IMG/VR virus record: IMGVR_UViG_2548876865_000013
Coordinates: 1 to 5,166 of that record
Reading direction: 5' to 3' (one strand)
DNA length: 5,166 nucleotides
From: a virus
Lineage: Duplodnaviria > Heunggongvirae > Uroviricota > Caudoviricetes
Positions 3,001 to 5,166 of the stretch are shown here, piece after piece. The position numbers are program-made. Within the stretch, counting starts at the first letter, position 1. Each line of letters opens with the position of its first letter.

Positions 3001-5166
3001 ACGGTTACCAGTAATTTCTTCATGTATCCTCCGGATAATAAAAAGCCAGCTTAGTGCACTGAGTGCGGATATATTCCTGCGCCCCTTCCAGCTGCTTCTG
3101 CATTGTCATCAACCGTTCTCTGAGGATGAAATAATCCCGTTCAGCGGTGTCTGCCAGTCGGGGGCCGGTTGCATTATCCACGCGGGCGGTGCCGGTGGAT
3201 TCACGCACGGTACCGGAGCAGGTGGCGTTGATCCGCAGGCGCTTACGACCAGCGGCAACATCAGCGCGCAGAGTTTCATTTTCAGCTCTCGCATCGGCTA
3301 ACTCCTTTGTGTATTTTTCATCCAGCGCAGCAACATCACGCTGGCGCTGCTGCATGTCAGTAATGGTTGCGTTTGCCAGCTCCAGCTCGCTGGCTTTTTT
3401 ATCGCGCTGCGCTTTGTAGGTGATGGCATTATCGCGGTAATGGTCTGTTGCCAGCCACAGCGCACCACAGGCCACCAGCAGGACAATAATCACGCCACAC
3501 AGTGCCCGGTTCATATCGTTGTCACCCCACCAGCCCTGCCGAATTCAACGTCATCCATGCCATAGAAAGAAGAAGAGCAATCAGCGTTGCTGAAAATGAA
3601 ATGCAGACAATGACCCAGAGGATTTCCCCCAGCATTATGAGTTTGCGTGACATGATTACCTCTTAATCCCCGTTTACGATTTCAACGCAATGACCAGTTT
3701 TGCCAGCCCATACAGCATCGGAGACACAGCAATACCAACAGCCACCCACTTAATAGCAAAAGCCAGCGCTCTGCTGATGTCATCAGTCACTGTCACCCCA
3801 GCAGCCCCGACGAAGACAACATCACCCAGGCGAGGGACAGAAAAAGAGCAACCAGCATTAGTGAAAATGAAATACCTACAATCACGCACAGGACCTTTGC
3901 CGGCGTTATGAGTTTGTCTGACATAGCTACCCCTTAATTGCCACAATTAACTGGGATACTACCCATAAAAAAGGGATGCTCCAGACCAGCAAAAATTTCC
4001 AGTTTGGTAATTGACTAATCATGAGTCGCAACTCCCTAATCAGTTTGCTAAAATCAATCAAGGCAGCCTCCCATAGCTTACTGCCATAAAAACAAAACCC
4101 CGCTTGCTGCCAACAAACGGGGTTTTTACTTTTATTCACTTACATTTTGCCAGTTCGCAGGATTTCGTGTTATCCGTCCACGTGAGCATATCTCATTTTT
4201 CAGCAAAATATTCTGCTTACCTGTCGATCCCCCAACACGCCAGCGCACTCTCCTGGTCGCGACGGGATACCTGACCGTAACAGTTGTTTGAGCGAATACG
4301 GCAGTCTCTGCCACCGTCCTTAATCCACCAGCGAATCGCCTCACACGCTCCCCTGCGATCACCTGCATTAATTCGTTTATAAAACGTCGACGGAAAACAC
4401 TTACCGGGGCCAATGTTGTAAGGACAGAATGACGCGATCCCCGCTTTCTGGGGTTCCGTCAGTGGCACTTTGATGTTTTTCTCCACCCATGCCAGCGCCT
4501 TATCACGTTCAATGGCGTTAACCTGGTCGCATTTCTCCTTCGACAACTTCATGCCCGGGACGACAGGTTTACTATCCACCAGAATGGCACCGCGACAGAT
4601 GGTCCAGATACCCGCGCCATCACGGTATGCTGTTGTGTGGTTGCCTTCCTTTTCATCCAGAAACTGGTCAAGGATTTCAGGTGCAGAAGCCCCTGCGGCA
4701 ATCAGCGCCAGAACGGCAGCCGACAGGCCGTATCTGATTTTGGTGTTCATGGATATTTATCAGGATTTATCGGTTTCTGAGCCCTGGATATGTTTATCAG
4801 TTCCAGCCTGTTGCCTCAGGCTGCTAACAGGTCAATACAATCATGAGGATTATTTATGGACAATAACACTATTTCTCTACAGGAGTTGCTCGACAGCATT
4901 TCCAGGCTTCGGGAAGACGTGAACACCCTTACCGTCGCCTTCTCATATCTGGCATTCTCAATTCCAAGGGAACAGATGCAATCAACGCTGGCATCAATCC
5001 AGTTTGAATCATGCAATCCCAAATGGTCTCAGGAACAACAAGACTCTTTCAGGCGGCTTGCTGTATTACTGGATGAAAAATATGCTGGTAAAATTACCAT
5101 TTCGGCGGACTCTTCAGAGAACCCGTAATTATTCCCGGTAGTTTTCCTCTGTAGGTTATCAACACA

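Follow-up and report, generated by a model that had tools for sequence, protein, structure and literature searches.

A conserved Ybl58-family gene antisense to the lysis genes of a lambda-like prophage very probably lies on an optional, moron-like cassette

What is a 90-amino-acid (aa) open reading frame (ORF) doing on the plus strand of a phage late region whose large genes are all on the minus strand? The question is raised by the right edge of a 5,166-nucleotide (nt) stretch of viral DNA (IMG/VR virus record IMGVR_UViG_2548876865_000013, positions 1 to 5,166). This whole stretch, called the window here, contains the late region of a lambda-like prophage. The ORF, at 4856-5128(+), stands head-to-head with a lysozyme gene at 4217-4750(-). 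An earlier note, made from the sequence alone, had described it on the strand opposite to the late genes, in the position where a holin is normally found, and had suggested a moron or regulator expressed in lysogeny rather than a lysis protein. The ORF is present as described there, running from an ATG at 4856 to a stop codon at 5126-5128, and its product belongs to the Ybl58 family (PHROG 2411; WP_000369850.1). The reading we prefer, to which we give a probability of roughly 0.6, is that it is a genuine gene on a 308-bp cassette in a lambdoid lysis operon, and a host-derived moron acting by protein binding.

The start of the ORF is unambiguous because an in-frame TGA (4844-4846) lies four codons upstream of the ATG. 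Its length alone is not beyond chance, since the window holds 59 ORFs of at least 30 aa; it is conservation, not length, that establishes the ORF as real. It was followed through 96 loci, which gave 21 distinct nucleotide alleles from Escherichia coli, E. albertii, E. ruysiae, Citrobacter and metagenomes. The plus-strand frame begins with ATG and is open in all 21 alleles, with lengths of 273, 258 or 252 nt, the Citrobacter-type alleles being those of 252-258 nt. For 18 alleles, and over the 79 codons that lie outside the overlap with the neighboring gene ydfR (see below), the proportions of synonymous (pS) and nonsynonymous (pN) differences by the Nei-Gojobori method (NG86) were 0.232 and 0.077, with a pN/pS of 0.29. 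Variable sites were distributed 29/16/46 over the three codon positions (chi-square p = 6e-4), and pairwise pN/pS values against the window allele stayed at 0.23-0.39, even at pS up to 0.7. The earlier note had proposed that constraint on synonymous sites would speak for a noncoding region; such constraint is absent, and synonymous sites vary about 3-fold more than nonsynonymous ones. These results show that the ORF is under purifying selection, and it is almost certainly a real coding gene.

A rival explanation holds that the ORF is nonfunctional. It would be either a remnant in decay or the shadow of a constraint imposed on the other strand, for example by a minus-strand ORF or by the leader RNA of the late operon. 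The antisense frame with which it has wobble positions in common, the sole other frame with a low pN/pS, has an equally low value (0.26) and contains a 68-aa ORF at 4816-5022(-). However, it is this antisense frame that is the shadow, because stops interrupt it at different positions in different alleles. They occur in many alleles, and the 68-aa ORF was rejected as a true gene on this ground; the plus-strand ORF, in contrast, is uninterrupted in every allele, and both its start and its Shine-Dalgarno (SD) sequence are conserved. The existence of frameshifted variants in the databases could also be taken as a sign of decay. These variants form clusters P0030, P0037, P0049, P0051, P0059, P0060 and P0061; six are 94 aa long with an altered C-terminal part, and P0061 is 90 aa long with an internal frameshift. 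Their clusters are tiny, with 1-8 members against 81-370 for the intact ones, and the variants may be sequencing errors or occasional pseudogenes. A nonfunctional ORF would further be in keeping with the failure to find a promoter or terminator for it, described below. On the other side, a search of the whole window against Rfam gave no family in the ORF region (a DicF match elsewhere in the window was discarded as chance), and homologues at 25-40% identity keep the length and motif in unrelated contexts, those in Serratia and Winslowiella with an SD of their own. These observations essentially refute a nonfunctional shadow ORF, to which we leave only a very small probability.

The gene is not a fixed part of the lysis operon. 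Comparison by BLASTN with the Stx phage YYZ-2008 (L097) delimited an optional cassette of 308 bp, 4795-5102, with the ydfR stop region on one side and the endolysin leader on the other. YYZ-2008 shares ydfR and the lysozyme gene with the window, at a distance of only about 50 nt, and has 15 nt in place of the 308. The junctions are clean: from the lysozyme gene, homology extends as far as window position 4794 (89% identity), and it starts again at 5103 (97%). The cassette leaves untouched both the ydfR reading frame and the 44-nt endolysin leader (4751-4794), which is common to cassette-free phages. It contains 61 nt upstream of the ORF together with codons 1-82. The last eight codons are the antisense of the ydfR end, a sequence shared with cassette-free phages; the C-terminal eight-residue part that they encode is poorly conserved, and the N-terminal half of the protein is highly conserved. 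The GC content is 43.5% in the cassette, about 10 points below that of the lysozyme gene (53.9%), and 47.7% in the whole window. The cassette thus behaves as a moron in being present or absent between otherwise homologous flanks (308 versus 15 nt) and in having a base composition distinct from that of its neighbors. It departs from a typical moron in that the ORF has no terminator of its own downstream and runs into ydfR. As to the earlier preference for a moron over a lysis protein, the presence or absence of the cassette, its low GC content, its antisense orientation and the non-phage homologues all support it, and the missing terminator does not. We consider it very probable that this is an optional moron-like cassette and not a lysis structural gene.

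The cassette is common in E. coli genomes. Of 5426 complete genomes of this species, 1077 matched at least 80% of the query 4751-5166 and thus contain the cassette; 2467 gave a match to at least some of it, in most cases to the ydfR end. The protein is encoded by 3 of 50,697 deposited phage records. This difference may mean that resident or defective prophages are enriched for the cassette, or it may reflect sampling bias instead. The exact 90-aa protein occurs on at least 1000 contigs, and RefSeq/GenBank records annotate a hypothetical protein at the same position.

We then considered the apparent holin position. The neighbors past the window end were read from records 99.5-100% identical over 4751-5166. 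In these near-identical records, the next gene after the ORF is ydfR (DUF1327), which encodes 114 aa on the minus strand and has its stop at window 5094-5096; only its 3' end, 5094-5166(-), lies inside the window, which cuts it (RefSeq/GenBank annotation of near-identical loci). The full-length ydfR in locus L001 matched Pfam DUF1327 at E 5e-43. The two genes, ydfR and the 90-aa ORF, are convergent and have 35 nt in common (5094-5128). Directly after ydfR, about 0.35 kb further on, comes a gene for a class II holin (PF04971) of 71 aa. The order of the lysis operon is therefore holin, ydfR, the 90-aa ORF in antisense, endolysin, small ORFs and Rz/Rz1. That the ORF seemed, in the earlier note, to take the place of a holin was an effect of the window edge, with the rest of ydfR and then the PF04971 holin lying past 5166. 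Its likeness to class II or S21-type holins (PF04971) consists of just this apparent position upstream of the endolysin gene within the window. It differs from them in that its product has no transmembrane segment and matches no holin hidden Markov model (HMM), in that it lies on the opposite strand, and in that the real holin is present.

What, then, is the protein related to? Against the PHROG profiles, residues 1-90 matched phrog_2411 over profile positions 1-90/90 (E 1.1e-58, 196 bits). RefSeq lists the product as hypothetical protein WP_000369850.1, and the UniRef name is "Ybl58." The ORF is thus a member of a family that has no assigned function and no Pfam or NCBIfam model. The family is small, because an HMMER pass over 1.84 billion representatives gave only 21 relatives. 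With distant matches included, the profile collected 238 clusters, all from Enterobacterales, with lengths of 81-106 aa and one of 127 aa. The pattern ELL..I..L...VN.L..AFSYLAFS...E..N....Q..F..LA is common to relatives of 81-97 aa with identities of 25-40%, and the window protein likewise combines a length in the range of about 81-97 aa with AFSYLAFS and the flanking L/E/N/Q/F columns. Over 59 sequences, L32 and E51 are invariant, and E10, L11, I15, L25, A28, F29, Y31, F34, N54, Q62, F65, L68 and A69 are at least 90% conserved.

Members of the family occur in three kinds of context: lysis cassettes, an E. coli island and a fixed chromosomal dinI-bssS locus. In the Escherichia lysis cassettes, the gene lies antisense between ydfR and R; in L088/L089, it is still beside the endolysin gene, and no ydfR gene was called between it and the holin. 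In Citrobacter meridianamericanus (L005 3001-3252), it lies, again in antisense, upstream of the genes for a lambda-S-type holin (PF05106), a CHAP endolysin and a spanin. There, it is tail-to-tail with a 238-aa ORF without a Pfam match, for which no relationship to YdfR was found. A subfamily about 60% identical, with 89-92 aa, is found on the E. coli island (L104 2769-3047; also L105 and L106), about 300 nt downstream of an autotransporter gene of the AIDA/pertactin type and near a gene for an AraC/GyrI-like regulator, with no lysis cassette. In Serratia marcescens and Winslowiella, a homologue forms the central gene, X, of the locus pyrC-dinI-X-bssS-solA (L098 6001-6282; L099-L101 6001-6276). 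It encodes 91-93 aa, with 25-36% identity and E values of 1e-20 to 1e-25 in the profile search. In both genera, X has its own SD, lies on the same strand as its neighbors and is preceded by a terminator after dinI; a clear terminator follows X in Winslowiella. The LexA box at this locus lies in front of dinI, not of X. In E. coli K-12, the dinI-bssS gap is 286 nt long, and tblastn found no homologue. Further homologues of the same size occur in Erwinia, Pantoea, Mixta and Sodalis, that of Sodalis ligni in yet another context. The family is therefore neither phage-specific nor tied to one type of holin or endolysin, and the gene is not lysis-specific, because its homologues are also found at the chromosomal dinI-bssS locus and beside an autotransporter gene. 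The Serratia and Winslowiella gene resembles the ORF in length and motif columns and would be expected to have the same three helices (see below); it differs as a stand-alone gene at a fixed, non-prophage chromosomal locus, on the same strand as its neighbors. With DinI and BssS themselves, the connection is the adjacency of the chromosomal homologues only, with no sequence match.

The product has a mass of 10.2 kDa and is acidic (pI 4.5), with a grand average of hydropathy (GRAVY) of -0.43. Its highest Kyte-Doolittle mean over 19 residues, 0.75, is too low for a transmembrane helix. An AlphaFold2 model based on the 59-sequence alignment (mean predicted local distance difference test score [pLDDT], 82.3) has helices at residues 8-35, 38-52 and 59-76, amphipathic and of a soluble kind, and a disordered tail from residue 83. 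The earlier description of a helical, non-membrane product agrees with this model of three helices, and the protein is predicted to be soluble, acidic and three-helical, without catalytic or membrane features. Scans of the 90-aa protein and of diverse family members against Pfam and NCBIfam gave no family match, and for 14 diverse members there was no Pfam match at E up to 1, DinI (PF06183) and BssS (PF13991) included. A sequence profile search of the PDB gave nothing below E 0.3, and Foldseek searches of the PDB and BFVD gave nothing below E 0.4. A match to the anti-silencing protein Mip (NF041858) covered only 15 residues and scored 13.7 bits, where the cut-off is 50; it was dismissed as chance. 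Hha-like modulators were likewise not indicated: Pfam gave no Hha match, and no Hha-family chain appeared among the fold-search matches shown.

Many phage-encoded inhibitor proteins are small, acidic and helical. The product could therefore belong to a moron engaged in superinfection exclusion, antidefense or another phage-host conflict, blocking an incoming phage or a host defense protein. The optional nature of the cassette, its patchy distribution and the contrast between 1077/5426 E. coli genomes and 3/50,697 phage records would suit this reading as well. However, the fixed dinI-bssS locus in Serratia and Winslowiella, which belong to different families, points to a housekeeping or physiological role, and a pN/pS of about 0.3 together with the conserved N-terminal half gives no sign of diversifying selection. 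We regard a role in phage-host conflict as improbable.

Next, the signals for expression were examined. The SD sequence named in the earlier note, GAGGA, was found at 4845-4849(+), 6 nt before the ATG. GAGGA or AAGGA stands at the same spacing in 9 of 10 aligned Escherichia-type alleles, L090 having CAGGC instead; the Citrobacter-type alleles have AAGGA, and L090 is the only exception to an SD of this type among all 21 alleles. The plausible -10 hexamer of the note, TACAAT, does exist at 4836-4841(+), and it is more conserved than the surrounding bases among the Escherichia alleles (8 of the 10 aligned alleles have TACAAT, 1 CACAAT and 1 TAGCAT). As a promoter element it is only putative: the consensus scan was silent, and it lies too close to the SD. 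Only 14 nt separate it from the ATG. Transcription starting about 7 nt after it would begin inside GAGGA, so the proposed -10 and the SD would be hard to use together. A candidate -35 at 4811-4816(+), TTGCCT (TTGAAT in other alleles), can be read from the alignment, but its spacing of 19 nt to TACAAT is suboptimal. This hexamer is overlapped by an inverted repeat, CAGCCTG-N6-CAGGCTG (4804-4823), of which just the core CCTG-N6-CAGG is partly conserved. The repeat was rejected as an intrinsic terminator; it has no T-run, and the terminator scan was negative there. In the Citrobacter-type alleles, the alignment suggests a more conventional layout, GGGACA-17-TATTAT, located about 37 nt upstream. 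The presence of a LexA box was also rejected, both for the phage gene and for the chromosomal homologues, as only half-site-like CTGT motifs were found upstream of them. Expression of the ORF in the lysogen seems possible, at somewhat less than even odds.

Several results weigh against a host-derived moron with its own expression. The consensus scan found no sigma-70 promoter on the plus strand in 3948-5166, and a transcript from the best candidate, the one with the 19-nt spacer, would lose most of the SD. No plus-strand terminator was found in the scanned region 3900-5166, including after 5128; in L001, the first terminator downstream is a weak one inside the holin gene. No literature was found on ybl58, on WP_000369850.1, or on YdfR/DUF1327 with holin, endolysin or prophage, and for dinI, bssS and Serratia nothing relevant was among the matches listed. 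Finally, the persistent placement of the gene in or beside lysis cassettes in two genera makes a lysis-related role possible.

Such a role would be that of a lysis-timing or lysis-safety factor, in which either the protein or convergent transcription tunes the holin, YdfR and endolysin genes, for example by preventing leaky expression of lysis genes in the lysogen or by modulating the holin. The gene is antisense each time, between ydfR and R in Escherichia and upstream of the holin in Citrobacter. Because it converges on ydfR, with the 35-nt overlap and no terminator, its transcription would yield RNA antisense to both ydfR and the holin gene. In L088/L089, it keeps its place beside the endolysin gene although no ydfR was called. 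However, the homologues in chromosomal and island contexts are not in phages at all, and the holin and endolysin types in Citrobacter are unrelated, which makes a specific lysis-protein partner unlikely. Being on the opposite strand, the gene is not coexpressed with the late genes. Position itself is weak evidence, since the surroundings of the lambdoid lysis genes are a well-known hot spot for morons, such as lambda bor and the stx genes. We therefore rate a lysis-timing or lysis-safety factor as unlikely, although less so than a role in phage-host conflict.

With a host-derived moron as the preferred reading, the following mechanism can be proposed. The cassette between ydfR and the endolysin gene would carry a gene of host origin whose expression does not rely on the Q-dependent late transcript, the latter reading the antisense strand of the ORF. 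A weak promoter of its own in the 61 nt upstream could drive it at any time, the repressed prophage included. The product would bind a conserved bacterial protein stoichiometrically, as a small modulator or "connector," and would not act in lysis; binding appears the most plausible role for a product so small and featureless, which suits neither catalysis nor membrane insertion. As a side effect, since no terminator follows the ORF, its transcription could send convergent, antisense RNA into ydfR and the holin gene. Any one specific molecular role is, at best, rather unlikely.

Morons, as a class in the sense of Hendrix and Juhala, were reportedly described by Hendrix and coworkers as extra genes in lambdoid late regions. 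The ORF is like this class, and like lambda bor in particular, in being an extra gene beside a lysis cassette, oriented against late transcription, absent from homologous phages and distinct in composition. Lambda Bor is a lipoprotein; its promoter has been demonstrated, and it is expressed in the lysogen and has a serum-resistance phenotype. The product here, in contrast, would be cytoplasmic, no convincing promoter or terminator was found for its gene, and there is no sequence relationship to Bor.

A bolder version would make the Ybl58 proteins unrecognized small helical regulators native to the dinI-bssS stress and biofilm locus, repeatedly captured by lambdoid prophages and planted antisense in their lysis operons, where a protein made in the lysogen and convergent transcription together would couple host stress to lysis or induction. 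We consider this a long shot, slightly less probable than a phage-host conflict role.

The ORF was already known as an annotated hypothetical protein of an uncharacterized family. What is new is that the gene is coding, that it lies on an optional cassette with a precise junction, and that it has chromosomal relatives beside dinI and bssS. About one in five complete E. coli genomes carry the cassette, yet the family of its protein has no Pfam model, structure or literature. The dinI-bssS relatives are the most useful lead, as they offer a genetically tractable, non-phage setting in which function can be studied. If the protein does modulate the SOS response, biofilm physiology or the leakage of lysis genes, it would be one more prophage-borne host modulator, of interest to specialists in phage and E. 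coli genomics, though unsurprising.

The rest of the window is in keeping with a lambda-like late region. The gene for the terminase large subunit begins near 1071(-) and continues beyond the left end of the window, and the small terminase subunit Nu1 is encoded at 1045-1593(-) (PF07471, E 1e-81). The endolysin gene, 4217-4750(-), belongs to the Phage_lysozyme family (PF00959, E 2e-24) and lies outside the cassette; the N terminus of its product is hydrophobic and Ala/Gly-rich. Rz lies at 3020-3514(-) (PF03245), with Rz1 (3109-3294) embedded in it.

Between the endolysin and Rz genes, about 700 nt (3515-4216) are variable cargo that looks like a second cassette within the lysis operon. It contains two paralogous 43-aa ORFs, 3522-3653(-) and 3793-3924(-), both matching phrog_4906; from their translations, each has a hydrophobic core that could span a membrane. 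A 70-aa ORF at 3927-4139(-) matches phrog_6632. A G+C-rich hairpin at 4094-4126, with runs of A and T on either side, was scored in the scan as terminator-like on the minus strand; given the T run that follows it on the plus strand, it could be bidirectional.

On the other side of Rz, a 74-aa ORF at 2799-3023(-), whose start overlaps the Rz stop, covers just positions 100-172 of the 291-position phrog_2571 profile and so looks like a truncated gene. Upstream of Nu1, AGGTCGCCGCCC occurs at 1769-1780; we take it to be the reverse complement of the 12-nt lambda cohesive end, GGGCGGCGACCT, and a lambda-type cos site is probably located there on the minus strand. Between cos and Rz, a gene of the DUF3950 (YlcI/YnfO) family (1977-2162, +; E 3e-19) is oriented against the late genes, and near it a hydrophobic 53-aa ORF is found at 2304-2465(-).

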